Position numbers and translations under genes: made by a program
Part shown: positions 20,311 through 56,069 of the stretch, one piece after another
Numbering within the stretch: the stretch's first letter is position 1
How the letters are laid out: each line of letters starts with the position of its first letter
Source of the DNA: Candidatus Pacearchaeota archaeon
GTDB lineage: Archaea; Nanobdellota; Nanobdellia; Pacearchaeales; GW2011-AR1
Assembly: GCA_018303885.1 (NCBI GenBank)
Contig: JAGVXG010000004.1
Span: 1 to 57,036 of the forward strand
Direction of reading: 5' to 3'
Length of the DNA: 57,036 nt
The notes under the pieces: generated by a model
Database searches by the model: none
What the model saw: the letters and a program-made list of their open reading frames with translations, nothing else
What the model was told of the DNA's origin: nothing

Positions 20311-21252
20311 ATGGAAGAAAACAAAGAAAACATTAAAGAAACTAAAGAAAAAACCATAGAGCAAAAAAAGAAGTTTAGTTTTAACTATGATAAACACTAC
20401 AAAAAATTGCTTTTAATACCTGTAATTATCATGCTTTTTTCCCTCGCCTATTTATTTTATTTTCATTCGCAAACAGGCGAGTTTATAATAAAAGACATAA
20501 GCCTCTCTGGTGGAACAACAATAACTCTTACAGGAGATTTTCTTGACCAAGACCTACAAAAACTAGAACAAGACCTAAAAGCAGAATATGGTGATGTTTC
20601 ATTTAGAAGGCTCACAGAGTCTACTTCAGGCAAAACATTGACTTTTGTAATTGAAAGCCATGCCAATGCAGATGAGCTAAAAGCATCAATAGAGGAAAGC
20701 ATTGGACAGGAACTTACACATGAAAACTCAAGCACAGAATTTTCAGACTCTGCTTTAAGCGGAAATTTTTACCGCCAGTTGATTATCGCATTGATAATAT
20801 CTTTTATTTTGATGTCTGTTTTTATATTCTTCTTATTTAGGTCATTTGTGCCAAGCTTAGCTGTAATTTTTGCTGCTTTTTCTGATATTGTTATGCCTTT
20901 GGCTCTTATTGATTATCTTGGTATAAAAATTTCAGCAGCAGGAATCGCTGCTTTTTTAATGTTAATCGGTTATTCAGTAGACACAGACATTTTGCTTACT
21001 ACAAGAGCCCTTAAAAAACAAGAAGGAACAGTGAATCAAAGAATTTACGGTGCTTTTAAAACCGGTATTTTCATGACGATAACAGCGTTAGCTGCTGTTC
21101 TACCAGCCTTCTTTATAATTACCGGGTTGCCGGATTCATTCAGACAGATATTTTTTATCTTGGCTTTAGGTTTAGGTGCTGATATTATTAATACATGGCT
21201 TACAAATGCCAGCATAATTAAATGGTATTGTGAAAAGAAAGGAATTAGATAA
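20311..21252 (+). CDS. secF: Protein translocase subunit SecF
   Basis: DISLSGGT, LMLIGYSVDTDILLT, six TMs. Confidence 0.93.
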   Translation: MEENKENIKETKEKTIEQKKKFSFNYDKHYKKLLLIPVIIMLFSLAYLFYFHSQTGEFIIKDISLSGGTTITLTGDFLDQDLQKLEQDLKAEYGDVSFRRLTESTSGKTLTFVIESHANADELKASIEESIGQELTHENSSTEFSDSALSGNFYRQLIIALIISFILMSVFIFFLFRSFVPSLAVIFAAFSDIVMPLALIDYLGIKISAAGIAAFLMLIGYSVDTDILLTTRALKKQEGTVNQRIYGAFKTGIFMTITALAAVLPAFFIITGLPDSFRQIFFILALGLGADIINTWLTNASIIKWYCEKKGIR

Positions 21253-21253
21253 A

Positions 21254-22903
21254 ATGAAAATATCATGGAGAATTTGGGTTTTGATGTTTGCACTTGCTTT
21301 TTCCGCAGTGGCAATTCTTAATATTTCTTCATCTTATAGTTTCCTTGTAGGAGTATTGATACTTTCTATACCATTCACGCTAACTTTTTCAAAATCAAAA
21401 ACAACAAAAATAATTCTTTTATCGCTTACAGTTGTGGTGCTTGTACCTATAGTATTTTTTTCTTTCCAAAAAGGAGTCGTGATAACATCGGTAAACTCTG
21501 ATTCAGTATATTTTGCCGAAGGATTGCGAAAAGGAATAGTAATAACTGCAATAAACGGGAATAATATAGATAATGTTGAAGATTACATAAACCATTTACC
21601 TCAGACATCAGAAAGTCAGAAAAAAATAGAACTTCAAACCAGTCAAGGTAATTTTATTTTCTTAACTAATAAAACGCCAGATATAGTTGTTTCTAACATA
21701 CCTAAAACTAATTTGAAAACAGGATTGGATTTAAGCGGCGGCGCAAGGGCAATTTTGAAACCGGTTAATGCAACTCTCTCGCAAAATGATATCGATGACC
21801 TAGTTTCAGTAACTTCAAACAGATTGAATACTTTCGGAATAAGCGATGTAGATATTAGAAGTGTTTCTGATTTGGAAGGAAATAAATTCTTAAGGGTTGA
21901 GGTTGCAGGAATAACTCAAGAAGATCTTAAGGAGCTCGTAGGACAGCAGGGAAAATTTGAAGCAAAAATAGGAAACGACACTGTTTTCGTGAGTGGGGAA
22001 AAAGATGTAACATTTGTCTGCAGAAATGACGCAACTTGTGCAGGAATTGAAACATGCCAGCAAGACAGTTCTTCAGGAGGGTATTTTTGTAAATTTAGAT
22101 TCTCAATATCTTTAAGTCCAGAAGCAGCAGAGCGCCATGCGCGAATAACACAAAATCTTACTTTAGACCAGACAAATTCACAATACTTATCAAAAAAACT
22201 GGATTTGTATCTTGACGATACCCTTGTCGATTCTTTATTTATAGGAGCTGATCTTCGTGGCGCTGTAACAACTCAAATACAAATTTCCGGTTCTGGAGCA
22301 GGAGCGACAGAAAATGAAGCATATGACGACTCCTTGGATTCCATGAAAAAACTTCAAACAATCCTCATTACAGGAAGCTTGCCATATAAGCTAGAAATTG
22401 TGAAGTTAGATTCCTCTTCTCCAATACTTGGGAAAGAATTTACAAAAAACATAATTACTCTTGGAATAATTGTATTCTTGATAGTTTCCATTTTGATATT
22501 TATAAGATATAAGCGCATTAAGATTACTCTTGGAGTTATTTTGACTATGTTTTCTGAAGCAGTAATAATCCTCGGAATTGCATCTATAATTTCATGGAAC
22601 CTAGATGCACCAGGTATTGCAGGAATCATCGCCGGAATAGGTGTGGGAGTCAATGATCAAATCGTGATTATAGAAGAATCAGTTTCCCGAGAAGCAACGA
22701 CGTTAAAACAGAGAATTAAAAGAGCCTTATTCATAATTATTGGAGCCTTTTTCACTATTTTTGTCGCAATGCTTCCTTTATTTTGGGCTGGCGCAGGATT
22801 ACTCGAAGGCTTTGCATTTACTACGATAATAGGAATCACTGCAGGAATATTAATCACGCGTCCCGCTTTTACAGAGATTATGAGAAAAATTCAGGGTGAG
22901 TAA
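21254..22903 (+). CDS. secD: Protein translocase subunit SecD with PDZ-like insertion
   Basis: GLDLSGGARAIL, RLNTFGISD, L.TGSLP, GFAFTTIIG...GILITRPAF; start at the ATG after the secF stop. Confidence 0.92.
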   Translation: MKISWRIWVLMFALAFSAVAILNISSSYSFLVGVLILSIPFTLTFSKSKTTKIILLSLTVVVLVPIVFFSFQKGVVITSVNSDSVYFAEGLRKGIVITAINGNNIDNVEDYINHLPQTSESQKKIELQTSQGNFIFLTNKTPDIVVSNIPKTNLKTGLDLSGGARAILKPVNATLSQNDIDDLVSVTSNRLNTFGISDVDIRSVSDLEGNKFLRVEVAGITQEDLKELVGQQGKFEAKIGNDTVFVSGEKDVTFVCRNDATCAGIETCQQDSSSGGYFCKFRFSISLSPEAAERHARITQNLTLDQTNSQYLSKKLDLYLDDTLVDSLFIGADLRGAVTTQIQISGSGAGATENEAYDDSLDSMKKLQTILITGSLPYKLEIVKLDSSSPILGKEFTKNIITLGIIVFLIVSILIFIRYKRIKITLGVILTMFSEAVIILGIASIISWNLDAPGIAGIIAGIGVGVNDQIVIIEESVSREATTLKQRIKRALFIIIGAFFTIFVAMLPLFWAGAGLLEGFAFTTIIGITAGILITRPAFTEIMRKIQGE

Positions 22904-27182: not shown

Positions 27183-28415
27183 ATGCAACAATATACTTCT
27201 GAAACCGAAGGAAAAAATTGGCAAGACATCCAAGAAATTAGAGGTTCTTTCACACCAAAATTGTTAGAAGACATTAGAGCAACTTCTAAAGAAGATGCTA
27301 TTGAAAGGGCAACAGATGTGATTCAAAGGACTTTAACTTCTTTTAGAGATAATGGCTATAGTTTTGCAAATGTTGAACCAGGACATGGAATCGGACATTT
27401 AGTAAGGGATTATATGAATTCTTATATTCTTTTTTCTGGCTTAGAAGCAGATCCAAAACATTTATTTTTAGGGTTTGTTGGAGGCTCGTTGCATGACCTT
27501 GGCTGTGCAGTAGTTCCAAGATATGACGAATCTAAAAGAGCTGTAAGACATGCAGAAGCTGGTTCCTTACTCGTAAAAAGTTTACTTGAAAATGAAACAG
27601 AGTTAAACGACGCCGAAAAAACTTCAATTGCATATGTAATAGCCGCACATACTCATTATAGGGGGGAAGATCCTGTTAAATGCCAAGATGGAGAAACAAG
27701 AATAGTAAAACCATACCAAGAATTAGATGAAACAGGGCATCCAATTTGGCCTGTTTGGTTTACGAGATGGGTTGATAGACTTGATTGCAATGGTCCTGCG
27801 TTTGTTGGAAGACATTACTTAACGCTTGGAGAAAAACATGAAGATTATGATGGCGTTGTTCATTTTGATGTTGATTTTTCACATCACATGAAACCATTAT
27901 TGCGGCCGTTTAAAGAGCAAGTCGATGAAAGCGGCAAAAGAAATCAAACAATGTCAGAACATATGAAAATGTTTGCAGATTCGCAAAACAATGAATCTCC
28001 TTATGGGAAACATGATTATGGTTTCATGGTTAAATTAAGAGACCGCTCAAGAGAAAGGCTTTATAGAATTGTTAACTCGACACAATTACCTCCTCAATTT
28101 AGCGTGGAAAGAGAAAGCGAAATTAGAAGAGCTTGGGCATCATTTTTATCTGAAAATGTTGAGCCTTCTAGACTTGGAAGACAAACTGCATTAACTCTTG
28201 ATGGTATGTTTTCAGGATTAGAAGAAGGAACAAGACACGCATGGTGTAATGGATTTTTATCAATAATGCAAGAATATATACCTTATTCTTTAGATAGATT
28301 GAAATTGTTAGAAAAAGAAACCTTAAATGACGCTTACTTCCACCTTCCAGGAATTGCCGGAGATATTAGAGGGGTCATTTCTGCTAAAGGAAAAGCTTGG
28401 GTGGCTGCTGTTTGA
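27183..28415 (+). CDS. HD-superfamily metal-dependent phosphohydrolase of unknown substrate
   Basis: GHGIGH ... LHDLG ... HAEAG ... AAHTH ... VDRLD. Confidence 0.7.
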   Translation: MQQYTSETEGKNWQDIQEIRGSFTPKLLEDIRATSKEDAIERATDVIQRTLTSFRDNGYSFANVEPGHGIGHLVRDYMNSYILFSGLEADPKHLFLGFVGGSLHDLGCAVVPRYDESKRAVRHAEAGSLLVKSLLENETELNDAEKTSIAYVIAAHTHYRGEDPVKCQDGETRIVKPYQELDETGHPIWPVWFTRWVDRLDCNGPAFVGRHYLTLGEKHEDYDGVVHFDVDFSHHMKPLLRPFKEQVDESGKRNQTMSEHMKMFADSQNNESPYGKHDYGFMVKLRDRSRERLYRIVNSTQLPPQFSVERESEIRRAWASFLSENVEPSRLGRQTALTLDGMFSGLEEGTRHAWCNGFLSIMQEYIPYSLDRLKLLEKETLNDAYFHLPGIAGDIRGVISAKGKAWVAAV

Positions 28416-35745: not shown

Positions 35746-37119
35746 ATGGATATAAGAGAAGAGGAATCTGATATAAGAGCTTTTTTTAGCAGATTAAAAA
35801 ATAGAGACTTTTCAGGAAATGTTGGAATTGCACTAAAAAACAGCATCTATCAATTTTCCACGACTCTTATAGGAAAAATAGGTGCTTTAATTCTTACAAT
35901 AGTTCTTGCTAGATTACTCATGCCAGAGATTTTTGGACTTTACAGTTTAGCATTATCTACGATTATTATTTTTGTCGCATTTTCTGACTTAGGTATAGGA
36001 GATACTTTAGTTAGGTTTGTTTCAAAAGAGCTAGGAAAAAGAAACATAGCAAAAGCAAAGGCTTACTCAGAATATCTAATAAAAATAAAGGTTTTTATAA
36101 TGCTGGCTGTTTCTTTAATTTTAATACTTTCTGCTAAATTTATCTCTGAAAATTATTATCATAAGCCCCTAACCTTTGCTTTAATGGCAGGAAGTCTTTA
36201 CATTCTTTTTGGAGGCGGAGTTGTTATCCTCCAAGCCCTTTTGCAAGCGCATAATTTTTTTAAACCAATTCTTTACAGAGAAGCTATTTTCCAGATACTT
36301 AGAATAATAATTATCCCTATTTTTGTTCTTCTTTCAATAAAAAATCTTAGCCCGGAATTTTTGGTGTCAGCAATAATTCTAATTCTTTCATTATCTTTTG
36401 CTATTTCAGTTCTGTTACTCTATGTTTTTTCTAAAAAGACCATATTTGTAGGTACGTTGAGAACTCCGAAAAAAACACTTTCAAAAAAAGATAAAACCAA
36501 TGTAAAAAAATTTGTTTTATTAAATTCTACAATAATTCTTTCTGGAATATTTTTTGGTTATATAGACATTGTAATGCTAGGATATTTTGTTTCTTCAGAG
36601 TATATTGGGTATTACCAAGGCGCATTTAGCTTTATTAATGCAGCAATTTCTCTCATAACTTTTTCTGGAGCCCTTCTTCCGATTTTTAGCAGGCTTAACA
36701 AAGGAAAAATGAACACTTTTTTAGAAAAAACAACAAAAGTAGTTTCTTTAGTGTCAATAATTTTATTTTTATTTATTTTCTTTGCTGCAGAACCTTTAAT
36801 TCTTACCATTTTTGGACAGGAATACGCTTCTTCAATAAACATTCTCAGAATACTTTCTTTGCTTCTTCTTTCTATACCAATAACAACCATTTATTCAACT
36901 TACTTTCTTTCTTCCGGCAAACCAGGAGTTGTATCTAAATTTTTGGTAATTTCCACAATAATAAATATAATTTTAAATTACCTTTTAATTTCATATTTTA
37001 TCTCGCATAGTTCTTTATATGCTACTTACGGCGCGGCAGCCGCCACGATAATTAGCCGATATTCTTTTATGATTTTTCTTATGGTTTATAGAAGAAGAAA
37101 TATAAAGAAGAAAAATTAA
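35746..37119 (+). CDS. Wzx/MOP-type oligosaccharide flippase
   Basis: LARLLMPEIFGLY, DLGIG, IDIVMLG, GYYQ.A, GAAAAT; about 12 TMs. Confidence 0.88.
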   Translation: MDIREEESDIRAFFSRLKNRDFSGNVGIALKNSIYQFSTTLIGKIGALILTIVLARLLMPEIFGLYSLALSTIIIFVAFSDLGIGDTLVRFVSKELGKRNIAKAKAYSEYLIKIKVFIMLAVSLILILSAKFISENYYHKPLTFALMAGSLYILFGGGVVILQALLQAHNFFKPILYREAIFQILRIIIIPIFVLLSIKNLSPEFLVSAIILILSLSFAISVLLLYVFSKKTIFVGTLRTPKKTLSKKDKTNVKKFVLLNSTIILSGIFFGYIDIVMLGYFVSSEYIGYYQGAFSFINAAISLITFSGALLPIFSRLNKGKMNTFLEKTTKVVSLVSIILFLFIFFAAEPLILTIFGQEYASSINILRILSLLLLSIPITTIYSTYFLSSGKPGVVSKFLVISTIINIILNYLLISYFISHSSLYATYGAAAATIISRYSFMIFLMVYRRRNIKKKN

Positions 37120-37625
37120 AGCCCAATAAAATCAATAATTTTTTTAACTGCCTCTTCTGGCTTTTGTTTTACTGAATCAATTTCTATTTCCGAATTTGTT
37201 GGAGGTTCATAAGGAACATGTAGCCCAATAAAATTTTCAAGTTCACCTGCTTCAGCTCTTGTATAAAGTCCCTTGACATCTCTTTTTTTACATTCATTAT
37301 AAGAACAGTTTATATAAATTTCAACAAATTCTTTCCCAAAATTTTTTCTAGCTTCTTCACGTGATTCTCTAAATGGAGAAATTATTGGAACCATAATATA
37401 GTCTACTTTATCAATAACTTTCTTGCATAATTCAATAATAAGCCTATTATTCTCTTTTATATCTCCAGGAGTAAATCCAAGATGCCTATGCAACTCTCGC
37501 CTGACATCATCACCATCAAAAACCTGATAACTTTTCCCTAATTTATCAAACTCTTTTTTTAATAATTCAGTAATAGTTGTTTTTCCACTTCCAGATAAAC
37601 CCGTAAACCATAAAACTCTACCCAT
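37116..37625 (-). CDS. cysC: Adenylyl-sulfate (APS) kinase
   Basis: WFTGLSGSGKTT, DGD.VR, LGF, ISPFR, KRDVKGLY, YEPP. Confidence 0.92.
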   Translation of the reverse strand: MGRVLWFTGLSGSGKTTITELLKKEFDKLGKSYQVFDGDDVRRELHRHLGFTPGDIKENNRLIIELCKKVIDKVDYIMVPIISPFRESREEARKNFGKEFVEIYINCSYNECKKRDVKGLYTRAEAGELENFIGLHVPYEPPTNSEIEIDSVKQKPEEAVKKIIDFIGL

Positions 37626-37626
37626 A

Positions 37627-39840
37627 TTATTCTACAAAAACCCTTTCGCCATTTTTAATTTTATCTAGAATAAATCTTGAAATTTCTGGTCTCATAAACC
37701 ATTCTGGAGGCTCTTTTCCTTTTTGAAACAACTCTCTTGCTTGTGTTCCCGACAAGTGCAGTTTATTTTCATCTGGATGATCAATGAAATCAAGATCATG
37801 GATATACCTTTCTTCTAATTCTGAATAAAAAACCTCTCCAAATTTAATTGGTTCTATCCCTAATTCTTCTTTTGTAAATTTATCGAATATTTCATGAGAA
37901 GCATTTTTTGAATAGAAATCTCCAACACCAGTATGATCTCTACCAATTATAAAATGACTGCAGCCAAAATTCTTCCTTACAATTGCAGTAAATAAAGCTT
38001 CTCTAGGCCCAGCATACCTGGAGTAATTTGCAAATGTTCCCATCAATACCTTAGATTTTGGATAAAATTCTTCCATCATTTTTTCATAAGATTCAATTAT
38101 TATTTCAGACTCAAAATCTCCAGACTTTTTCTTTCCTATTATAGGATGAACAAATAGCCCATCACACAGCCCTCTTTTTAACCCCTCAAGCTGTATAAAT
38201 TCATGACTTTTATGTATCACGTTTCTAGTATGAAATCCGACAACTTTGCTCCATCCTCTTTCGGAAAATATTCTTCTTGTTTGTTTTGGAGTTAGTTCAT
38301 GAATTTTGTATTTTGATGGCTTTCTTTTTAATAAAGTTATTTTACCACCTAAAAAATAATCTCCTAAGCCCATAAATCTCTTAACACCAGGATGTTCTAT
38401 GCTTAATGTTCCAAAAATCTTTTGTACTTCTTCATTTTTATCAACCTTATAAAATTCACTAAGATGTAAAATGCCATAACCTTCTCCACCATAAGTTAAC
38501 AAAACATTTTCCCCCTCTGAAAGTTCTTTTCTTTTATCCTCCCCAATAGTTAAAACAATTGGGAGCGGCCAAATTACTTCACTAGTTAATCTACACTTAT
38601 CAGCTACAGACCTAAAGTCTTCTTTTCCCAAAAATCCTTCTAGTGGACTAAAAGCTCCTACCCCAATTTGTTCTATGTCCATAAGAGTCTCTTCATCAAT
38701 TTCTACACTTTTTTTTGGCAAGTCCTCAGTGTAGTTAGAAACATATCGGTCTATCAGTTTACCTCCATGGGGTTTGACCAACAACTCTGGCGTTTCATGA
38801 GAGTAAATATAATTTGTATTTTCTAAGCTTTCTAAAAAACTGCCACTCTTTCCTTTTTGAATAAACTCGATTTGAGAAATTAAATTTGACAACATGTTTA
38901 CGGTTTCAACAGGATATTTCCCAACAGCAGTTTCTTTAGTCAAAGCAATACCTGTGGCACCATCCAAAATTGTATTTATAATATCATTGACTTCTGCTTT
39001 GTTGGGTTTTAAAGAAAAAGCCATCTGTTCAAGCGTATTTGTAGCAACAAAAGCATCTTTTCCCAGATCTCTCATTTTTTTTAATATAAATTTCTGGATA
39101 AAAGGGATTTTTTCAAGTTGAACCTGGCTTCCTAAATCCCCCCTATCAATTAATATTCCATTAGAAACCTTTGCTATTTCCATAAAATTCTCTAATCCTT
39201 TCTTTGACTCTATTTTTGAATAGATTACCGCTTCAGGATAAAGTTGTTTAAATTTCAATATACTCTCTGGAGACTCCATAAAAGATAGTGTAAAATGTTT
39301 TATGCCATATTTCTTAGCTAAATTAACTGCTAAATGATCTTTTTTACTAAAAGGGGGAAGATTAAATGTAGGGCTTTCAATTTGAACGGCCTTTTTACCA
39401 CCAATTCTTCCACCAATCACAACTTTACATTCTATAAACCCGTTGTTTAATTTACTGTCATCAAAAACCCTTAATAAAACAGAATTAAATTCTAAGGAAA
39501 TTAAATCGCCATCTTTTAACTTAGATATTATCCCTAATGGCTTAAAAAACAGATTAAATGAGTCACAGACTACCTTTTTTGCATGTATTTTTACAACACC
39601 CCCTTCAAAGAAATCAATTTCGGAAGTATTACCTGTTCTTACCTGAGACCCCTCAGTATCTAAAATTATTGGCACATCGTATCCCAATAAACCCCTTATT
39701 TTTTCTTCTATTTCCTCATCTTCAGTATGAGAAAGGTTTATTCTAAAAAAATCAGCTCCCCTATCTTTAAGTTTCAATAAGATATCCTCTTTAAATGAGC
39801 TTGGTCCAATAGTACAGATAATTTTGATTTTATTTATCAT
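37627..39840 (-). CDS. Pyruvate kinase-like domain fused to sulfate adenylyltransferase (Sat)
   Basis: N-half (about 38880-39840): KIICTIGP, RINLSH, SKIES, RGDLG, AT, ETAVGKYP. C-half (37627-38780): PHGGKL, FSPLEGF, FHTRNVIHKSH, YAGPREA, GRDHTGVG. Confidence 0.9.
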   Translation of the reverse strand: MINKIKIICTIGPSSFKEDILLKLKDRGADFFRINLSHTEDEEIEEKIRGLLGYDVPIILDTEGSQVRTGNTSEIDFFEGGVVKIHAKKVVCDSFNLFFKPLGIISKLKDGDLISLEFNSVLLRVFDDSKLNNGFIECKVVIGGRIGGKKAVQIESPTFNLPPFSKKDHLAVNLAKKYGIKHFTLSFMESPESILKFKQLYPEAVIYSKIESKKGLENFMEIAKVSNGILIDRGDLGSQVQLEKIPFIQKFILKKMRDLGKDAFVATNTLEQMAFSLKPNKAEVNDIINTILDGATGIALTKETAVGKYPVETVNMLSNLISQIEFIQKGKSGSFLESLENTNYIYSHETPELLVKPHGGKLIDRYVSNYTEDLPKKSVEIDEETLMDIEQIGVGAFSPLEGFLGKEDFRSVADKCRLTSEVIWPLPIVLTIGEDKRKELSEGENVLLTYGGEGYGILHLSEFYKVDKNEEVQKIFGTLSIEHPGVKRFMGLGDYFLGGKITLLKRKPSKYKIHELTPKQTRRIFSERGWSKVVGFHTRNVIHKSHEFIQLEGLKRGLCDGLFVHPIIGKKKSGDFESEIIIESYEKMMEEFYPKSKVLMGTFANYSRYAGPREALFTAIVRKNFGCSHFIIGRDHTGVGDFYSKNASHEIFDKFTKEELGIEPIKFGEVFYSELEERYIHDLDFIDHPDENKLHLSGTQARELFQKGKEPPEWFMRPEISRFILDKIKNGERVFVE

Positions 39841-39938
39841 ATCCTTTAATCACCATAATAACTTTTAAAGATTATGTAATTCTAATCTGAATCCTTTAGC
39901 CTCGATAAATTTAAAAGTACAATGATTTGGTTTATCTA

Positions 39939-40712
39939 ATGGATAAAGTACTATGGATATTCTTACATCCTCCTAGAACAGGCGGGAATACTATAATTGA
40001 AACCTTATTAAAAAAATTTCCAAGAGAAGAGATATTTATGGCATCTCTTGCAAGGTATAAGTTAGATACGGAAGAATTTAAGCCTAAAAAAGTAAGATTT
40101 ATGCTTGGACATGCAACTTATTATGGCATTCATAAACTTGTTCCGGATAAGGAGCCGAGGTACTTTATAGTATTAAGAGATCCTGCTGAAAGATTGATTT
40201 CCCATTATAATGCAAAAATGGAAAAAGAGATGAAAAAAATATCTTTTGATGCGTGGTATAAGAATCAGATAAAAAACGAAATGGTTCATGTTCTTGATTT
40301 GAAGCTTAAAGGAAGCCCATCAACAAGGATACATACTCCAAGTATTTTCTTGCCTATTATTAGAAAACTGAACTATAAGGCTTTTTATTTCATTCAAGCC
40401 TTTATCTTTAATCTTTTAAGACTTAATAAGAAGAATGATTACAGAAAACTAGAAAATGCAAAAAAACTTCTAGATTTATGCTGGTTTGTCGCTATTTTAG
40501 AAAAAAGTGACAAAGATTTCAAATTTTTGCTTAAAGCCATGGGCATAAAAAATCCTAAATGGGTTGACGATGGTGTTAGCAAGAAGATAGTGAAAATCGA
40601 TGAAAAGCTTAGGCAAAAAATATACAAAGAAAACCCGCTTGATGTTCAGCTCTATAAGTATGCTTTAAAAGTCAGAGAAGAAAAGCTTAAGTTAATAAAG
40701 AAATCTAAGTAG
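39939..40712 (+). CDS. PAPS-dependent sulfotransferase (Sulfotransfer_2-like)
   Basis: FLHPPRTGG 5'-PSB loop and LRDPAERLISHY 3'-PB motif; start at ATG 39939 with TATA about 21 nt upstream. Confidence 0.8.
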   Translation: MDKVLWIFLHPPRTGGNTIIETLLKKFPREEIFMASLARYKLDTEEFKPKKVRFMLGHATYYGIHKLVPDKEPRYFIVLRDPAERLISHYNAKMEKEMKKISFDAWYKNQIKNEMVHVLDLKLKGSPSTRIHTPSIFLPIIRKLNYKAFYFIQAFIFNLLRLNKKNDYRKLENAKKLLDLCWFVAILEKSDKDFKFLLKAMGIKNPKWVDDGVSKKIVKIDEKLRQKIYKENPLDVQLYKYALKVREEKLKLIKKSK

Positions 40713-40718
40713 ATTGCC

Positions 40719-41162
40719 TTATTTTTTTAAATCTAGTACTTCTAAGCCATTTTTTGAGGGTATTGCCTTTGGAAACTTTTCTTTCAGTTCTTTAGTTTTT
40801 ACCAGTAGTTTATTTCCAAGCATGTTTCCGACAATTTTCTGAAAAATTTTAGATTTAGAAGAGGGCTCAATGTCATGAAATAAACAATAGTGTTTTTCAA
40901 ACAAGACCTTTGAAGGAATTAATAAGGGCATAGCTATACTCCAGTCTTGAGTGTAAATGATATCGTAGTTTTCTTTTTCATTTATCTTTAAAATAAAGCC
41001 CTTTAATCCTTCCATAGAACTAGAAAGAGTTTCAAAATTTAGGTCCTCATTTCTTGAAACTAAGTCAACTTCATGCCCCTGTTTTTTAAGGCTTTCAGCT
41101 ATGTTTTTAACAAACTTTCCTACAAAATCCTTCTCTGTCCTGTAAACTACTAATATTTTCAT
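40719..41162 (-). CDS. Short protein resembling a GT4 N-terminal domain only
   Basis: MKILVV ... L...GHEVDLVS ... YDIIYTQDW; 147 aa, no C-terminal nucleotide-binding domain. Confidence 0.55.
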   Translation of the reverse strand: MKILVVYRTEKDFVGKFVKNIAESLKKQGHEVDLVSRNEDLNFETLSSSMEGLKGFILKINEKENYDIIYTQDWSIAMPLLIPSKVLFEKHYCLFHDIEPSSKSKIFQKIVGNMLGNKLLVKTKELKEKFPKAIPSKNGLEVLDLKK

Positions 41163-41163
41163 T

Positions 41164-41880
41164 TTATGCTGTATTACTGAAGCCTTCAAGTTTTTTTAAT
41201 ATATCTTCAGCATGATTTAGCTCTTTTTTGTCATTAACTGTTAGCCAGATTCCATCGTGATGAAAACTATGTAACATTTTTTCACCAATTATCTTTCGAA
41301 AGGCATTTTCTTCTATATTCCCTCCGACAAGAAAATCCTTTATTTTTTTATTAAAAACATAAAAGCCGGCATTCATTCTTTTATCATGAACTTCCCCTTT
41401 CTCTTTGAATTCAACTACCTTCCCAAAATCATCTGTATGGACAATCCCAAAATTAGTTCTAAGATTTACAGTCGCTATAGTGGCTATTGCATTTCCAGCA
41501 ATATGCGCCTTTTCAAAATCATCAAGTGATAGGTCTGTTACTTGGTCTCCATTCATCGCATAGAAATTTTCATCTTCAATGTTTGCCTGCTCTAATAACG
41601 CCTTAAATGCATCTTCAGTTCCGCCGGCTTCATCGTGCTCTGTATAAGTTATTTCAACCCCAAAATCTTCACCATCTGAAAAATAATTTTTTATCATCTC
41701 TTTTTTGTAAGCAGTGCCTATAATAACTCTTTTAACCCCGCTTTTGACCAGCCATTCGATTATTCTCTCGAGAATTGGTTTGTCATTTATAGGAATTAAT
41801 GGTTTAGGCAGATCCTCTGTACGTTCTTCAAATCTTTTACCCCGGCCTCCTGCAATAATTATTGCTGTTTTTAGAACCAT
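41164..41880 (-). CDS. Sugar-phosphate nucleotidyltransferase
   Basis: IIAGGRGKR, PKPLIPI, MNGD, F.EK, NAGFYVF. Confidence 0.9.
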   Translation of the reverse strand: MVLKTAIIIAGGRGKRFEERTEDLPKPLIPINDKPILERIIEWLVKSGVKRVIIGTAYKKEMIKNYFSDGEDFGVEITYTEHDEAGGTEDAFKALLEQANIEDENFYAMNGDQVTDLSLDDFEKAHIAGNAIATIATVNLRTNFGIVHTDDFGKVVEFKEKGEVHDKRMNAGFYVFNKKIKDFLVGGNIEENAFRKIIGEKMLHSFHHDGIWLTVNDKKELNHAEDILKKLEGFSNTA

Positions 41881-41956: not shown

Positions 41957-42547
41957 TCAAAGCAGGGGAATTGCCCTATCCATCCCAAACCGAACATAGG
42001 GATGTAATTCTTCACCAAGTCCATTTCCATACATTTCATGTGTTACAACTAATGGTTTTTCGTGTAACCTATCTAAATTTAGTTCACCATCAGCCTCACA
42101 ATAATATAACAATCCCGTGTCGTCTATTCCCAAGGGAAGACCTTTCTCTTGAGGATTAGAGTGGGGAGTTGTATTCCAGATAGCCCTTATAAATCCAAGA
42201 TAAACTAAACTATTTTCATTTACATCTAAGCCGCTTTCGGCCTTAATTCTTGATACAAGAGATTTTGATGTTGGGACTCCTCGGTCTATATATCCTCCAA
42301 GAGGCCATAAATAACCTTTTGCTGGTTCAGCTTTTCTTCTAACCAAAATAATGCCTTTTTTGCCTTCTTCATTATGATATGCAACTAATGCATCATGACA
42401 ACTTCTAACTAATACTTGTCTTCCATCTGAATAAACAGCTTCTCCCCTCCCCCTATACCTCAATGTTTCTAAATCAGTTCCACCCTCTACAGAATCTATA
42501 ATGAAAGGGTTTGTTACAGTTTTATATTCTCTAACTGAATCTGCCAT
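41957..42547 (-). CDS. Nudix-like hydrolase, GDP-sugar hydrolase-like, degenerate Nudix box
   Basis: RRKAEPAKGYLWPLGG ... RIKAESGL. Confidence 0.6.
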   Translation of the reverse strand: MADSVREYKTVTNPFIIDSVEGGTDLETLRYRGRGEAVYSDGRQVLVRSCHDALVAYHNEEGKKGIILVRRKAEPAKGYLWPLGGYIDRGVPTSKSLVSRIKAESGLDVNENSLVYLGFIRAIWNTTPHSNPQEKGLPLGIDDTGLLYYCEADGELNLDRLHEKPLVVTHEMYGNGLGEELHPYVRFGMDRAIPLL

Positions 42548-49101: not shown

Positions 49102-49218
49102 TAAAAGTGCTAAAAATTCTTTTTAAGCTTTATGAAGCTTTTCTATATAATACTCATACTCGCTTATCTAAAAATTAAGCATCATAATCTTTATAAAAGA
49201 AGATTTTATTATTTTTTT

Positions 49219-50103
49219 ATGATAACACAAGGAGTTTTAATTGAAGGATTTGGTCCTTACAGTTTTATTGTAGAAAAAGGATTAGCCAAAGCCATTCTTC
49301 CAGAAGAGGGAAATAAAGATTACTACAAATGGGCAAGAACTAAGCGTAGGGGATTTGATACGGCCTTAGAGGAAAGAATAAAACTTCCTTTTGAAAGTGG
49401 ACTTTTAGTTGTTAGAAACCCTGATGGTTCTATTAAATTTGATGATAGAAAACTTAGATTTAGTGGTTACTCTAAAAGAGGAGATCAATATGTTTTGCAA
49501 GTTGCTCCAACACATTTTGGGGAAATTAAAGCAACAGATATAAGAGCAGCAATGAGTCCAGAATTTGAAAAATATCTTTTAGAAAAAAGCCTAACAGACT
49601 TTGGCGAAGAAATGGCCTATTTTGCTTGTTCTATAGCAGTTAATGCTGTTCCAATAACAAAAGAAGGTTATGTACATGTCTTTAGAAGAAGTGATACTCA
49701 AGAATTATATCCTGGAAGATGGGATGTAATAGGTGGTTTCGTTGAAGTTGGCGATAGAATTTTTGATTTTTACGAAGGAGATATGTCTAAAAAATTTGCA
49801 GAGCTGGTAAATTATAATGCTAAAAAAGAATTTGTTGAAGAAACTGGAATTGATTATAATTTATTTAACTTAACAGGTTTAGTAAGGGGCGCTAATTTTG
49901 TTTTTACACATGAAGCTTTTCTTGATATGAGTACAGAAGAATTTCTTGCAAGATTTTCAAAAACTGGAGACTCTTCAGAGATCGGAAGAGTTTTAGTCCT
50001 TAAATCCTCAAAAGAACTTTCCGGGTTTTTAGAATCAGAAAAAGCTAATACTTCTCCAACAGCCTACCATGCCCTGAGACTTCATTTAAAAAACAGACTA
50101 TAG
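49219..50103 (+). CDS. Nudix-fold protein
   Basis: RRSDTQELYPGRWDVIGG ... KEFVEETGI; start at ATG 49219 supported by CATAATC-TTTATAAA 21 nt upstream. Confidence 0.65.
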   Translation: MITQGVLIEGFGPYSFIVEKGLAKAILPEEGNKDYYKWARTKRRGFDTALEERIKLPFESGLLVVRNPDGSIKFDDRKLRFSGYSKRGDQYVLQVAPTHFGEIKATDIRAAMSPEFEKYLLEKSLTDFGEEMAYFACSIAVNAVPITKEGYVHVFRRSDTQELYPGRWDVIGGFVEVGDRIFDFYEGDMSKKFAELVNYNAKKEFVEETGIDYNLFNLTGLVRGANFVFTHEAFLDMSTEEFLARFSKTGDSSEIGRVLVLKSSKELSGFLESEKANTSPTAYHALRLHLKNRL

Positions 50104-52243: not shown

Positions 52244-54958
52244 TTATTTTGTAAAATCGAAATTATCCATATCAGCATATTCACCAGAAGTCCTTAAAAA
52301 TTCTTCTTTATATAAAATATTTTCCGGATAATCAGTTTTCCATATTTTTATTGGCCCCCTAAAGCCATTAAAGTACGCAAACTCCCCTATACTTGCTCCC
52401 TGGCTGTTTAAATCAGCCAAAACAATGTCTGGCTGCGAATGCGCGAGTTTTACTGTTTCATATTTTTTTGAAGGGTCGTTCAATAAATATAATTGTGCAA
52501 ACAAGCTTTTAGAAACTTTTGGAGATAAGTAAATAGCTGTTCCAATTCTGTCAACCTGAATGCTCCCTTGAGCGTTTTGAGATACTGAAGGAATTATTTT
52601 TATAACTGAATCCAAGCCACTGCTGAAATCTAAAATCTGATTTTCATTTTGAAGATATCTTATAGGAATGGTTATTTGTTTATTATTGTATATGAAAACC
52701 CCAATAGGTTGTTTGAAAGATATGGAGTTATTGCTCTTTAAAACCTCAATAAACAATCCCGCAACTCCTGCGCTACCTGAAGGTAAAAATATTTGGCTGT
52801 CGTTATTTGTTTGGTATACTATATCTTCGTCAACAAAAGTTGACCCTTGATAAACTCTTATTTCACTAGAGTTTGTTTCTCGTGTTTGTGCAGGATTGTA
52901 TAACATGACTGGAATTTGTGCAAACCTATCTTTTCCATTTTCGTCGCTGCCAATTATGCTGTATGCGGAATATTTTCCCAAATCTGTTGAGTCTATCAAT
53001 AAATAAGAGACATTGTAAGACTTCATTAAACTCAATGCAGTTTCTGGTTGCGTTGTTGTTAAAAGATACCTGCCAGTTAAATGGTCCCAGTAACCAAATG
53101 CATGGCCGCCATCAGTCACTGTCGGCCGCTGTCCAATTGTCTGCACCCAATAACCATAATCCCACCAATGCACAAAAATACTGTTTTCTGCAGTATTATC
53201 TCTTACCCATGACATAGCGTACTGCCATTGAATCGAATACTGATTAGGAACAGTATATTTTACTCCATTAGCAGTGGCAGTTTCATAATTTTTGAAAGTC
53301 AAACCAATATAGAAAAGGCTAATCAACAGTAAAATCAATAGGAAAAGTTTCAAAATATCATCTTTTGCTCTTATCCTATGACCTAACAATGCTATAGGCA
53401 AGAAAGCCATTGATATGACAAAAACAGGAGATGAAATCACAAGCAATCTTATTGCCCCTCTTGAAGCCACAATCATTAAAATCGTCAAAGACAGTAAAAA
53501 CAAGTGCGAAAATTCTATATTTTTTAATTTTTCAAGTTTGCCTTCTGCCTTAAGATTTTTTATATAAATGTAAATTAAGGAAACAACAAAAATAAGCAAT
53601 GATCCAAAATATACTAACTGGCTTATGAAGCTTTCTCCGTTAAAGACAGTGCTGTTTGGGGAATACCTTGAAAAAATAAATCCTGTTAAAAATATTATAA
53701 AAGAAGTTATCAATATTCTTTTTTCTATTTTCTCCAAGTTTTTTACTGCCTCAGAAAACAGCAATATCAGGCCAAAAAAGAACATCCAGAAAAAACTTTT
53801 TCCAAAACTGGAAAAAATATCTGTAAGATAAAGCTGCTGATTTTCAGCAACAGTTAACCCTATTCTTGCTCTCCCAAAAGGATAAAGAAGACGTTCTATT
53901 AATTCTTTAAAGATTCCGATAAGAAAATCTGGCTTTATAACTAAAAGCACCAACAATCCAACAAAAACAACCAAAACAAAAGAAACCATTTCTTTTGTTA
54001 TCCATTCTTTTTTAACGATGTTCTTAACTTTTCTCTCAATCTTTTCTCCAATAAAAATATTAACTAATAAAACCAGAAAGACAAATAAAGGAATCGTTGC
54101 GTAAGTAACATCCAAAGCAGCAACTTTAAATCCAGATTTTATTCCTAAAAATAAGAAAGCGGGAATAAACCACAAAAAAAAGACTGTTGTTTCTTTTTTG
54201 CCTACTTTTCCTATAAAAAATGCTATTAACGTCGCCAGCGATAAAGAATAAAGTATGAATCTGAAGCCTCCCCAAGTGAAAATCATTAATATGGTTGAAA
54301 TTCCGGCAGTTAAAGCGAGCAGATAACTTTTATTTATTTTAAAAATCTTTTTTTCATTGTGCCATGCTTTCAAGAAAAAGAAAAAGGAAAGCCAAAAAAA
54401 GAAAAGACCAGCGCTTTCCAGTTCAGGAATGCCTGCAGTTGTTCTGTGCTGCATCAGCGGTACAACAGCATAAACAGCTGTTGCTAGTATTCCTATAAGG
54501 CTCTTTTGGAATTCTTCTTTCTTGTAAAATATCTCCCTGACAAAAAAGAAAAAAACAACTATGCTAAGTCCAAAAAATATCACTGGAAAAATTATTGCGG
54601 CATACTCCAAAGAGACATCACTTGAAAAAAGCTTCAGAAATTTGTAAAGATAAACTATCCCCCACTGAAGAAAATTTTGGTATGGTTCTGCCATGCCAAG
54701 ATATCTCATAGAATCTACGCTTGGCTGCGATCCAGTATCAATAATTTCGTGGGCAAGTCTTAAATAAAGAAAGGGGTCCAAGTCAGGTCCAAGAGTGTAA
54801 TTCCCAGTCGTTGCGTCCTTTAAACCGCTGATATTGGCGGTTCTTATGTATGTTCCTAAAATCAACACCACTAACAGCAAGACTAAAGATGCATAAAGCC
54901 ATTTCTTGCTGTCTTGCCAATTCTCTTTGAATTTAAAGCTAATCTCGCCTTCGACCAT
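52244..54958 (-). CDS. aglB: Archaeal oligosaccharyltransferase AglB (STT3 family)
   Basis: DLDPFLYLR, TVAE (TIxE-like), WWDYG, DSTDLGK (DK-type motif); multiple TMs. Confidence 0.96.
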   Translation of the reverse strand: MVEGEISFKFKENWQDSKKWLYASLVLLLVVLILGTYIRTANISGLKDATTGNYTLGPDLDPFLYLRLAHEIIDTGSQPSVDSMRYLGMAEPYQNFLQWGIVYLYKFLKLFSSDVSLEYAAIIFPVIFFGLSIVVFFFFVREIFYKKEEFQKSLIGILATAVYAVVPLMQHRTTAGIPELESAGLFFFWLSFFFFLKAWHNEKKIFKINKSYLLALTAGISTILMIFTWGGFRFILYSLSLATLIAFFIGKVGKKETTVFFLWFIPAFLFLGIKSGFKVAALDVTYATIPLFVFLVLLVNIFIGEKIERKVKNIVKKEWITKEMVSFVLVVFVGLLVLLVIKPDFLIGIFKELIERLLYPFGRARIGLTVAENQQLYLTDIFSSFGKSFFWMFFFGLILLFSEAVKNLEKIEKRILITSFIIFLTGFIFSRYSPNSTVFNGESFISQLVYFGSLLIFVVSLIYIYIKNLKAEGKLEKLKNIEFSHLFLLSLTILMIVASRGAIRLLVISSPVFVISMAFLPIALLGHRIRAKDDILKLFLLILLLISLFYIGLTFKNYETATANGVKYTVPNQYSIQWQYAMSWVRDNTAENSIFVHWWDYGYWVQTIGQRPTVTDGGHAFGYWDHLTGRYLLTTTQPETALSLMKSYNVSYLLIDSTDLGKYSAYSIIGSDENGKDRFAQIPVMLYNPAQTRETNSSEIRVYQGSTFVDEDIVYQTNNDSQIFLPSGSAGVAGLFIEVLKSNNSISFKQPIGVFIYNNKQITIPIRYLQNENQILDFSSGLDSVIKIIPSVSQNAQGSIQVDRIGTAIYLSPKVSKSLFAQLYLLNDPSKKYETVKLAHSQPDIVLADLNSQGASIGEFAYFNGFRGPIKIWKTDYPENILYKEEFLRTSGEYADMDNFDFTK

Positions 54959-55058: not shown

Positions 55059-56069
55059 ATGGTGGAAATTTTAGTTTTAATATCTTTTTTTATAAGCTTT
55101 TTTTTGGTCTTTTTTACAATCCCGTTCTGGATCAGAAAAGCCAAAGCGACAGGATTAATATGGGAGGATATGAATAAGCCAGGAAAGCCAAAAAATGTTG
55201 CGGGGTCTGGCGGTATTGTCGTCGTGGTCGCCTTTGTCGTTGGAGTTTTATATTATATTGCGATAAGAACTTTTTTCATAAAAGCTCAAAATGGTATAAG
55301 CCTTGAAATTTTTGCTTTATTAAGTGTAGTTCTTATTTTAGCAATAGTTGGAATTATTGATGATCTTCTTGGATGGAAACATAAGGGGCTTTCAAAAAGA
55401 ACAAGAATTTTTTTGGCGTTTGTTGCTTCCATACCCCTTGTTGTTATCAATGCTGGAAGTTCTGCTATGAGTTTTCCATTTTTAGGGGAAGTAAACTTAG
55501 GAATTTTATACCCTATTTTTCTTATTCCTTTAGGAATTGCTGGTGCAACAACAACTTATAATTTTCTCGCAGGATTCAATGGGCTTGAAGCAGGACAGGG
55601 AATTCTAATTTTGAGCTTTTTGTCTCTTGTTGCTTATAAAACCGGTTCGTCATGGTTAGCTGTTGTAGGACTAATAATGGTCTTTGCTTTGCTGGGTTTT
55701 TGGTTTTATAACAGATACCCCGCTAAAGTTTTTCCAGGCGATTCTCTTACGTGGACAATTGGCGCCTTAATCGCAGGAATGGCAATTCTTGGAAATTTTG
55801 AAAAAATAGCGGCCTTTGTATTTATACCATATATACTTGAGACAGTATTAAAATTAAGAGGAAATCTTGACAAATACTCTTTTGGCAAACCAAATAAAGA
55901 CGGAAGCTTGGAAATGCCTTATAACAAAATTTATGGACTTGAACATTTGTCAATTTACATCTTGAAAAAGTTGAAGCCAAGTAAAAAAGTTTATGAGAAT
56001 GATGTAACTTATTTGATTCATGGATTCCAAATTTTATTAATAGTTATAGCCTTTTTTATATTCCTCTAA
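55059..56069 (+). CDS. UDP-GlcNAc:dolichol-phosphate GlcNAc-1-phosphate transferase (AglH/GPT, MraY-like family)
   Basis: GIIDD, NFLAGFNGLE, NRYPAKVFPGD; about 10 TMs. Confidence 0.9.
   Translation: MVEILVLISFFISFFLVFFTIPFWIRKAKATGLIWEDMNKPGKPKNVAGSGGIVVVVAFVVGVLYYIAIRTFFIKAQNGISLEIFALLSVVLILAIVGIIDDLLGWKHKGLSKRTRIFLAFVASIPLVVINAGSSAMSFPFLGEVNLGILYPIFLIPLGIAGATTTYNFLAGFNGLEAGQGILILSFLSLVAYKTGSSWLAVVGLIMVFALLGFWFYNRYPAKVFPGDSLTWTIGALIAGMAILGNFEKIAAFVFIPYILETVLKLRGNLDKYSFGKPNKDGSLEMPYNKIYGLEHLSIYILKKLKPSKKVYENDVTYLIHGFQILLIVIAFFIFL

Follow-up and report, generated by a model that had tools for sequence, protein, structure and literature searches.

A PK–ATP-sulfurylase fusion, an APS kinase and a Sulfotransfer_2-type enzyme in an AglB-bordered glycan island of a Candidatus Pacearchaeota archaeon: a probable cassette for surface glycan sulfation

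A stretch of 57,036 nucleotides (referred to as the window) from a Candidatus Pacearchaeota archaeon carries an ATP sulfurylase (Sat) fused to a pyruvate kinase (PK) domain, an APS kinase (CysC) and a sulfotransferase within a glycan island. These genes probably form a self-contained accessory cassette that sulfates a surface glycan, by a proposed PK-coupled pathway leading to AglB, and do not serve sulfur assimilation. A route from sulfate to cysteine is not visible, a kit for making PAPS is present, and the sulfotransferase is of the sugar type, so surface glycans are most likely what is sulfated.

Cassette and surrounding glycan island

The host assembly amounts to 720 kb and is about 85% complete. 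The features of the window are collated below.

21230-22903: SecD, upstream border of the island (Pfam scan)
22999-52000, no single strand: surrounding glycan island genes (Pfam scans)
35746-37119, + strand: flippase, Polysacc_synt/MOP, 457 aa
37116-37625, − strand: cysC, APS kinase, 169 aa (PF01583 and TIGR00455)
37627-39840, − strand: PK barrel::PUA_2::ATP-sulfurylase fusion (PK-Sat), 737 aa (profile domain matches)
39841-39938, no strand: divergent intergenic region, 98 bp, with two TTTAAAAG boxes
39939-40712, + strand: Sulfotransfer_2-type carbohydrate sulfotransferase, 257 aa (PF03567, structural model, motifs)
52244-54958, − strand: AglB oligosaccharyltransferase, 904 aa (STT3, WWDYG)
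55059-56069, + strand: AglH-type polyprenol/dolichol-phosphate HexNAc-1-phosphate transferase, 336 aa (PF00953)

All four genes between 35746 and 40712 were identified by profile searches at these positions, and the divergence of PK-Sat and cysC from the sulfotransferase, described in an initial annotation of this DNA, was confirmed. The same annotation had placed PK-Sat and cysC beside the flippase; the adjacency stands, with the added detail of orientation that the flippase and cysC are convergent and overlap tail to tail by 4 nt. Only 1 nt separates the stop codon of PK-Sat from the cysC ATG, which points to an operon. Each TTTAAAAG box ends 20–21 nt before an ATG, that of PK-Sat on the − strand and that of the sulfotransferase on the + strand, and the two may be archaeal TATA boxes serving both divergent genes. 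A scan for sigma-70 promoters and terminators is uninformative in an archaeon and, as expected, revealed no enrichment. The Sat, PK and family-A1 sulfotransferase genes of the cassette are the only ones detected in the genome; because of this, and because the arrangement recurs in distant relatives, the clustering is not attributed to chance.

The island spans ~32 kb and is bordered by SecDF on one side and by AglB/AglH on the other, in agreement with the annotated end of the locus in aglB and an AglH-type gene. AglB (STT3, 34.3 bits; STT3-PglB_core, 24.1 bits; TIGR04154, 74.9 bits, well under the cut-off of 450) carries its WWDYG motif at residue 598 and has 13 hydrophobic spans. The AglH-type enzyme (PF00953 Glycos_transf_4, 115.5 bits; eight hydrophobic spans) gave weak MraY/WecA-type matches in NCBIfam, and the flippase (Polysacc_synt, 94.3 bits; Polysacc_synt_3, 72.4 bits; about 13 hydrophobic spans) weak MOP-flippase matches, all below cut-off. 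The island further codes for NDP-sugar dehydratases, epimerases, reductases, RmlA-like nucleotidyltransferases, a UDP-GlcNAc 2-epimerase, two C-methyltransferases, a DegT aminotransferase, and GT2, GT4 and GT1 glycosyltransferases. An AglB-dependent N-glycosylation cluster was recognised in the combination of a WWDYG-bearing AglB, a PF00953 primer, GT2/GT4/GT1 enzymes and a MOP flippase.

Sulfate activation and the fate of PAPS

CysC was matched by PF01583 (161.6 bits) and by TIGR00455 (179.7 bits, cut-off 138.7), with the P-loop GLSGSGKT at residues 9–16. That PAPS is not made for assimilation had been proposed from the window, in which no reductase or cysteine-synthesis gene was seen; the proposal is upheld, and the absence extends across the assembled genome. 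In the 720-kb assembly, no PAPS/APS reductase (PAPS_reduct) scored above the cut-off, and neither a sulfite reductase (NIR_SIR) nor any PALP-fold enzyme (PLP-type cysteine synthase), and hence no CysK or CysM, was found; assimilatory sulfate reduction by CysH/Sir/CysK was not recovered from this assembly. The sole weak PAPS_reduct match (16 bits) is MnmA and not a reductase. Control genomes all gave matches in the reductase and cysteine-synthase profile searches. These absences are not proof, since the genome is only ~85% complete.

It is very improbable that Sat and CysC instead serve assimilation or dissimilatory sulfur metabolism, with the reductive genes located in the unassembled 15% or supplied by the host. 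Such a role would agree with the incompleteness of the genome, with DPANN surveys that count sat as a marker of the sulfur cycle or of assimilation (PMC8091004; PMC12153355), and with the origin of the closest solved Sat (8a8d) in an assimilatory methanogen pathway, but PAPS_reduct, NIR_SIR and PALP are three independent families and all are absent. Sat is moreover found in only three of 61 relatives, is operonic, and lies inside a glycan island behind a putative promoter region facing the sulfotransferase; among the eight PK-Sat database loci with full precomputed gene lists, none has a reductase gene within 10 kb (0/8).

The initial annotation had called the module complete, which holds for Sat, CysC and the sulfotransferase; its other parts, a transporter, a family-I pyrophosphatase and CysQ, were not found in the genome. 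A SulP-family sulfate transporter and an Inositol_P/CysQ-type PAP phosphatase were likewise not found there. Phmmer searches of the genome, with neighbours from other PK-Sat loci as queries, gave no match for TauE, CysQ or ST1/ST3-type sulfotransferases, and when 8 of the genome's 24 polytopic membrane ORFs were scanned with Pfam (MFS, TctA, EamA, NCS2, AI-2E, VTT/DedA-type and CstA), no sulfate carrier was recognised, so the suggested check for sulfate transporters was negative within these searches. Because neither a family-I pyrophosphatase nor CysQ turned up, the pathway as drawn below has unfilled steps. Two DHH proteins of the genome, which resemble only RecJ, could act as PAP phosphatase or family-II pyrophosphatase. 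As a source of PEP, enolase is present; a simple pattern search for a phosphohistidine motif of the PPDK/PEP-synthase type gave no match.

PK-Sat consists of a PK barrel (residues 3–314; PF00224, 188 bits, Pfam), a PUA_2 domain (residues 355–506) and an ATP-sulfurylase domain (residues 516–725, 253.6 bits). The Sat profiles were exceeded (TIGR00339, 352.3 bits, cut-off 322.95; NF003166, 429.5 bits, cut-off 387), and the HxxH motif (H543, H546) and G633-R-D-H-T-G638 are invariant across homologues. The top PDB match of the Sat domain is 8a8d from Methanothermococcus thermolithotrophicus (335 bits), and the domain aligns end to end both with it and with 2gks from Aquifex aeolicus (223 bits); the Q of the Q-T-R-N motif in 8a8d is an invariant H537 throughout the PK-Sat family. 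Like the Sat–APS kinase PAPS synthases (2gks and metazoan PAPSS), some PK-Sat members are fused to CysC (~15% of PK-Sat homologues among the matches listed); unlike these enzymes and 8a8d, the present Sat bears an N-terminal PK A+B barrel and its CysC is a separate gene.

The PK part aligns with 3t05, 2e28 and PykF. When conservation of catalytic residues was scored over 58–118 homologues, R33, N35, S37, D61, T62, R68, K150, K209, E211, D235 and E303 were invariant and T267 reached at least 90% conservation; the equivalents of PykF R32, N34, D66, T67, R73, K220, E222, D246 and T278 are kept. The features of a canonical full-length PK are missing: the C-terminal allosteric domain is absent from the A+B barrel, the TIGR01064 score (235 bits) is below the cut-off of 306 with a match that stops at profile position 337 of 476, and the loop reads D-T-E-G-x-Q-x-R (invariant) versus the canonical DTKGPEIR. 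By its residues, the fused domain would work like a PK core and not like a canonical glycolytic PK. The structural model of PK-Sat (pLDDT 92.5) has a pTM of 0.88, which suggests that PK and Sat are held in a fixed arrangement.

A different view of the PK domain, as the cell's glycolytic PK incidentally fused to Sat or as a structural or oligomerisation scaffold, in either case lacking nucleotide coupling, is distinctly unlikely. It is the only PK in the genome and, with enolase present and the phosphohistidine motif absent, the sole recognisable PEP-to-pyruvate step, as this view would have it. PK is, however, found in only 8 of the 61 lineage genomes; the other 53 manage without it, so the lineage does not depend on PK as a housekeeping enzyme, and such a role of the fused PK was ruled out on these grounds. 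Sat is accompanied by PK in every Sat-bearing genome of the 61, the fusion is also present on a bacterial contig of 8.8 Mb and, extended by CysC, as a triple fusion, and what is invariant are the catalytic residues, beyond the fold alone.

We prefer to read the PK domain as one that would recycle ADP with PEP, in a nucleotide loop between PK and CysC. Tentatively, and with some doubt, PK::Sat(::CysC) may be described as a PEP-driven PAPS synthase in which PK is rigidly docked and the ADP/ATP loop is closed with the APS kinase. If so, sulfate activation paid for by PEP would be a further solution to energy coupling beside the CysN GTPase and the pull by pyrophosphatase, and would explain how surface sulfation is affordable to cells, the present DPANN archaeon among them, in which a pyrophosphatase is not recognised and the adenylate economy is poor; the sat "sulfur-cycle markers" in DPANN/CPR metagenomes would then largely be glycan-sulfation genes, and PK-Sat could be useful for biotechnological regeneration of PAPS. 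The PK-fused sulfurylase, which is the least usual part of the cassette and was not developed in the initial annotation, is a widespread architecture for which no description was found: a literature search did not return a natural PK-Sat fusion, and the literature on related terms, in its accessible parts, treats the enzymology of PAPS synthases, sulfurylases and APS kinases and not a natural fusion.

Sulfotransferase and sulfate acceptor

The true start of the sulfotransferase is ATG 39939 (257 aa) and not TTG 39927, since homologues begin with MDKVLW. A sulfotransferase profile search, on which the initial annotation had made the assignment depend, was passed in Pfam: PF03567 (Sulfotransfer_2) scored 34.9 bits versus a cut-off of 22, with only 40 residues (78–117) aligned; in NCBIfam, no model matched. 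The family comprises 82 proteins, most of them with precomputed PF03567. Both motifs sought, the 5'-PSB P-[KR]-[TS]-G-G-x-[TS] and the 3'-PB R-D-P-x-x-R-x-x-S, were found, the former as the loop H10-x-x-R13-T14-G15-G16 and the latter as R80-D-P-A-x-R85-x-x-S88. Across 39 homologues, conservation of H10, G15, G16, R80, P82, R85 and S88 is complete or reaches at least 90%; at position 13 the present enzyme has R where distant family members have K, and the invariant H58 is a candidate catalytic base.

The AF2 model of the sulfotransferase (pLDDT 91.9, pTM 0.89) was compared by Foldseek. Its nine best matches are all sulfotransferases, the best being heparan-sulfate 2-O- and 6-O-sulfotransferases (probability 1.0; 4ndz, TM 0.58–0.60). 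Identity as a carbohydrate sulfotransferase is supported by resemblance to the Sulfotransfer_2-type heparan-sulfate enzymes (4ndz, 3f5f, 5t03) in structure and in both PAPS-binding motifs, but identity to them is only 15–17%, a Golgi-type N-terminal anchor is missing, and the Lys of the PSB loop is replaced by Arg in the present clade. The protein is soluble and has neither a signal peptide nor a TM segment. An aromatic/basic amphipathic insert of high hydrophobic moment (~residues 131–160, ~30 residues) is missing from some distant family members. One review (PMC11625862) mentions that Pacearchaeota have PF03567 proteins which are uncharacterised.

The following pathway is proposed. Sulfate would be adenylylated to APS by the Sat domain, and APS would be phosphorylated to PAPS by CysC from the same operon with release of ADP. 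The N-terminal PK domain would convert PEP and ADP into ATP on the spot and would thereby hold ATP high and ADP low near the two ATP-using sites. The sulfotransferase, cytoplasmic and probably seated on the membrane through its amphipathic insert, would transfer sulfate from PAPS onto a sugar hydroxyl of a lipid-linked oligosaccharide, for which the AglH-type enzyme would prime the carrier and the island glycosyltransferases would build the chain. The adjacent Wzx-type flippase would carry the sulfated glycan outward, and AglB would join it to Asn of surface proteins. Gene linkage, the one line of evidence used for this assignment, suggests the AglB N-glycan as the sulfate acceptor, at the lipid-linked stage.

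PAPS may also be made for sulfation of an acceptor other than the AglB N-glycan, such as a Wzx-dependent lipid-linked polysaccharide or capsule-like polymer, a glycolipid, an O-linked glycan or a nucleotide sugar; we consider this unlikely. The 32-kb island codes for three or more glycosyltransferases and for several NDP-sugar pathways and so has room for more than one glycan, the membrane-hugging insert would suit a glycolipid equally well, bacterial PK-Sat goes with polysaccharide genes that lack an N-glycosylation context, and at three database loci (L025, L016, L021) the cassettes lie in glycan loci with AglB absent from the 10-kb flanks. On the other side, AglB, an AglH-type primer and a flippase share the island with the cassette both here and in locus L003, neither a Wzy-like polymerase nor a regulator of chain length was recognised (the unassigned ORF 27183-28415 has no TM segment), and the sulfated N-glycans of Halobacterium, cited also in the initial annotation, are a precedent for sulfation of glycans linked to dolichol phosphate (PMC11980604, PMC11407970).

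The sulfated N-glycan favoured here has its nearest parallel in Halobacterium salinarum, in which, as far as the available text of Zaretsky et al. 2025 goes (PMC11980604), N-glycans are sulfated by Agl30/VNG1056C and Agl31/VNG1057C from an aglB-anchored cluster. In both archaea, an aglB-linked cluster holds enzymes for sulfating sugars of an N-glycan assembled on dolichol phosphate (the role being a proposed one in the present case); in Halobacterium, one of these enzymes is membrane-associated and one soluble, and the cluster includes a flippase and glycosyltransferases. In contrast, Agl30/31 are sulfatase-like members of the alkaline-phosphatase superfamily and not P-loop PAPS-type enzymes, and the accessible text (PMC11980604) names no genes for PAPS synthesis in the cluster and nowhere mentions PAPS. 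The Pacearchaeota enzyme is Sulfotransfer_2-type with its own Sat/CysC, and an Agl30/Agl31-type fold was not found in it: its matches were to Sulfotransfer_2 and heparan-sulfate sulfotransferase folds, with none to sulfatases.

Rhizobial nodPQ-nodH is a Nod-factor cluster with its own PAPS genes, the sulfurylases being CysD/CysN-type and GTPase-coupled. The clusters for sulfated capsules of Vibrio sp. KMM 8419 and Cobetia marina carry their own PAPS genes as well, according to the accessible parts of the reports (PMC11641403, PMC11766843), as does the cyanobacterial synechan cluster for a sulfated polysaccharide (PMC13125312). Such bacterial clusters resemble the present one in that sulfate-activation genes and a PAPS-dependent sulfotransferase stand in a glycan locus, apart from assimilation; they differ in that the present host is an archaeon with AglB.

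Distribution and biological meaning

The module is accessory within the lineage: of the 61 genomes, 3 have Sat, each time with PK. This patchiness, together with the place of the cassette inside a glycan island that varies, is the one observation bearing on host recognition or virus evasion. Co-occurrence across the relatives, whose assemblies are fragmented, is imperfect, with the sulfotransferase present without Sat in two genomes (G003, G016) and Sat without the same sulfotransferase family in two others (G020, G030). In G020, from the same genus, PK, Sat and CysC are fused into one protein, encoded next to Wzx and to a sulfotransferase that belongs to another family.

Among database loci, L003 and L025 repeat the order of a sulfotransferase divergent from PK-Sat-CysC and have a flippase close by. 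A check of co-occurrence with aglB, suggested in the initial annotation, was positive for L003 (54% identity, same synteny, with AglB and Epimerase_2) and negative for the three loci with AglB-free flanks named above. PK-Sat is paired with a sulfotransferase and glycan genes in L007, L008, L020 and L021 (bacterial or other), and a sulfotransferase lies within 10 kb in 8 of the 11 PK-Sat loci examined. For seven further sulfotransferase/PK-Sat pairs, the longest contig is equally long in both match lists, which suggests that the two genes share a contig. In L003, L016, L017 and L025, no more than ~4 kb separates a flippase from the PAPS genes, and in L027 a flippase adjoins the sulfotransferase; SecDF adjoins the cassette or lies no more than ~2 kb from it in L005, L015, L016, L017, L021, L025 and L027.

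The literature search gave no description of a DPANN sulfation module, and the sulfatase-like Agl30/31 of Halobacterium are the only characterised archaeal N-glycan sulfotransferases found in it. With the cassette, glycan sulfation in archaea would have a second enzymology, one that depends on PAPS. The cassette also calls for caution in taking sat in DPANN MAGs for evidence of sulfate assimilation or dissimilation, as was done in two surveys (PMC8091004, PMC12153355). A concrete and testable prediction is that ultra-small DPANN archaea bear sulfated surface glycans. The DPANN surface is the interface with hosts and viruses, and the cassette may have an ecological role there, for example in host recognition or virus evasion; being portable, it would allow the sulfation trait to be switched on or off among close relatives.

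Cassette genes and the surrounding glycan island

The genome under study (720,315 bp in 17 contigs, estimated to be ~85% complete) carries the cassette on the window, contig C15, the G+C content of which is low throughout (0.30–0.36). Cassette genes were identified by ORF listing and by Pfam and NCBIfam scans, and all four genes named in the initial annotation were recovered in this way.

Features of the cassette and of its surroundings (position, strand, description)
35746–37119, + strand: Wzx-like MOP flippase (Pfam/NCBIfam scans)
37116–37625, − strand: APS kinase, cysC (TIGR00455, 179.7 bits, cut-off 138.7)
37627–39840, − strand: PK-Sat, 737 aa (pyruvate kinase (PK) barrel 3–314, PUA_2 355–506, ATP sulfurylase 516–725)
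39939–40712, + strand, divergent from PK-Sat: Sulfotransfer_2 protein, 257 aa (Pfam)
Upstream edge of the island: SecD (Pfam)
Beyond the island end: AglB (WWDYG at residue 598, 13 hydrophobic spans)
Beyond the island end, with AglB: AglH-type PF00953 transferase (Pfam)

PK-Sat also matched TIGR00339 (352 bits, cut-off 323), and the cysC ATG lies 1 nt from its stop codon. The start of the sulfotransferase was placed at the ATG at 39939, giving 257 aa, because its homologues begin with MDKVLW. The divergent spacer (98 bp) contains two TTTAAAAG boxes, each ending 20–21 nt 5′ of its ATG, which, judged from sequence, may be paired archaeal TATA boxes.

The Pfam scans place in the island (~22999–52000) dehydratases, epimerases and reductases of NDP-sugars, as well as three nucleotidyltransferases, a pair of C-methyltransferases, one DegT aminotransferase, glycosyltransferases of the GT2, GT4 and GT1 families, and a UDP-GlcNAc 2-epimerase. 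Other ORFs were recorded as well. A 410-aa soluble protein (27183–28415) belongs to no Pfam family and carries HD-phosphohydrolase-like motifs (HGIGH ... SLHDLG) with a weak Cas3-HD match. Two Nudix-like ORFs (41957–42547 and 49132–50103, the latter with a weak PF00293 match) have degenerate Nudix boxes. Beside the sulfotransferase, a 156-aa ORF (40719–41189), probably a gene remnant, has a sub-threshold match confined to the N-terminal half of GT4 glycosyltransferases.

Assimilation genes and supporting steps

The initial annotation had proposed that PAPS is made here for glycan sulfation and not for assimilation, and had named an assimilatory pathway elsewhere in the genome, combined with a non-glycan substrate of the sulfotransferase, as a finding that would speak against this. 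Whole-genome family searches (~85% complete genome) returned no PAPS/APS reductase above cut-off, no sulfite reductase, and no PALP-fold enzyme and therefore no CysK/CysM; the control genomes matched as expected in each search. These results, together with the linkage of the sulfotransferase to glycan genes, support the proposal within the limit set by ~85% completeness. The single 16-bit reductase match was MnmA, the tRNA 2-thiouridine synthase, which (contig C12, L001:1027–2688) carries an N-terminal extension of ~150 residues with a weak ankyrin-like match.

The sulfate transporter for which the initial annotation had advised looking was not found: SulP and TauE were absent from the ~85% complete genome, and no other sulfate carrier was recognised among the scanned polytopic membrane proteins. 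CysQ/Inositol_P and family-I pyrophosphatase were also absent from the same ~85% complete genome, and its two DHH proteins resemble RecJ only, so no gene is assigned to the uptake of sulfate, the removal of PPi or the recycling of PAP.

Pyruvate-kinase domain and sulfotransferase

The PK domain of PK-Sat can be aligned with the pyruvate kinases PykF, 2e28 and 3t05 across its A and B domains, and it has no C domain. Residues R33, N35, S37, H38, D61, T62, R68, K150, K209, E211, D235 and E303 are invariant in 58–118 homologues, and T267 is kept in at least 90% of them. The loop D-T-E-G-x-Q-x-R is likewise invariant in this set, whereas PykF and the other aligned enzymes have DTKGPEIR. In the ATP-sulfurylase domain, residue 537 is His in the whole family, in contrast to the Gln of Q-T-R-N in 8a8d, the closest solved ATP sulfurylase. 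The full-length model (pLDDT 92.5, pTM 0.88) suggests a defined inter-domain arrangement.

Of the 61 genomes compared, which belong to the same genus and order, 8 have a pyruvate kinase of any kind and the other 53 have none. This scarcity, the release of ADP by CysC and the use of ATP by both Sat and CysC together point to coupling; PEP-driven recycling of ADP is therefore the simplest role for the PK domain, which would regenerate ATP from the ADP of CysC. An enolase (388 aa) is also present and can supply PEP. A simple motif search of the genome gave no PPDK/PEP-synthase signature, and the fused PK may thus also be the only PEP-to-pyruvate step of the cell.

The Pfam match of the sulfotransferase is short. 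Its family (A1, 82 proteins, mostly metagenomic, the few named members being from Nanoarchaeia/Pacearchaeota) conserves the 5′-phosphosulfate loop H-x-x-[RK]-[TS]-G-G and the 3′-phosphate motif R-D-P-A-x-R-x-x-S, and a G-H pair is invariant. The AlphaFold model (39 homologues) is confident (pLDDT 91.9, pTM 0.89); its best PDB matches were heparan-sulfate 2-O- and 6-O-sulfotransferases (probability 1.0), with a TM-score of 0.58–0.60 against 4ndz. No transmembrane segment was found in the protein. An aromatic/basic, amphipathic insert (~residues 131–160) probably anchors the enzyme to the membrane surface, and this would fit action on a lipid-linked glycan before flipping.

Recurrence, distribution and comparison with known systems

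More than 1,000 database relatives of PK-Sat were found. Among the 120 matches listed, each sharing 48% identity or more, most of those with a named source are from Pacearchaeota/Nanoarchaeota and a few bear a bacterial label; ~15% carry a fused APS kinase as an extension. A sulfotransferase lies within 10 kb of PK-Sat in 8 of 11 loci, and in the eight loci for which complete precomputed gene lists were available, no reductase gene is listed in the flanks of PK-Sat. Locus L003 (54% identity) reads AglB – Epimerase_2 – ... – sulfotransferase <-> PK-Sat – CysC – methyltransferase – flippase – GT2, and L025 reads SecDF – flippase – ... – CysC – PK-Sat <-> sulfotransferase – ... – AglH – SpoIIM. 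In G020 (same genus) a PK-Sat-CysC triple fusion adjoins the flippase, and the sulfotransferase there belongs to a different family (ST1/ST3). PK-Sat is also paired with a sulfotransferase and glycan genes in L007 (a bacterial contig of 8.8 Mb), L008, L020 and L021, with CysQ in addition in L008.

Between PK-Sat and APS kinase, L008 carries a 90-aa PQ-loop/SemiSWEET-like gene (L008:12267–12539), which has a homologue on contig C6 of the genome under study (102 bits). Near an A1-family sulfotransferase, L026 encodes a 430-aa protein in which a CysQ-type PAP phosphatase (Inositol_P) is fused to APS kinase (L026:13816–15108); two ORFs without annotation (355 and 576 aa) lie between this gene and the sulfotransferase.

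Among the 61 genomes, Sat occurs in three, with PK fused or adjacent in all three, and strong matches to the A1 family occur in four; the module is therefore accessory. It lies within a variable island adjoining SecDF in L005, L015, L016, L017, L021, L025 and L027. Co-occurrence of its parts is imperfect in the fragmented MAGs, which counts as evidence against the proposed reading.

Single loci differ in detail. In L015:8520–12727 (genome G003, in which Sat was not found) an A1-family sulfotransferase directly follows SecD, and beyond it lie a Laminin_G_3 protein, a protein of 475 aa from the sulfatase family that includes Agl30/31 of Halobacterium, and a divergent ORF resembling APS kinase. 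In L017:1–1906 (G030, same genus) PK and PUA-Sat occupy two ORFs and PUA_2 is truncated, which suggests that the gene is frameshifted or a pseudogene, or that the assembly is in error. A mini pyruvate kinase without B domain (225–232 aa; PF00224, 187–194 bits, profile positions 3–55 and 177–328) is flanked by an RsmB/F methyltransferase-core ORF on one side and by a distinct RsmF-PUA ORF on the other in L018:7924–8601 (G015), L014:7873–8571 (G016), G008 and G024 (same genus); it is absent from the genome under study.

Halobacterium is known to make sulfated N-glycans that are assembled on dolichol phosphate, and its sulfotransferases Agl30/31 are sulfatase-like members of the alkaline-phosphatase superfamily (PMC11980604). 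A 2024 review mentions PF03567 proteins of Pacearchaeota and Woesearchaeota as uncharacterised and gives no locus context (PMC11625862), and sat is counted among the genes of sulfur metabolism in surveys of DPANN (PMC8091004, PMC12153355). Bacterial sulfated-capsule clusters are described as carrying their own PAPS genes (PMC11641403, PMC11766843). No description of the PK-Sat fusion was found in the literature searched. The evidence supports an archaeal, AglB-linked, PK-fused cassette for PAPS-dependent glycan sulfation, for which we infer an N-glycan as the acceptor, coupling through the PK domain, and an ecological role.
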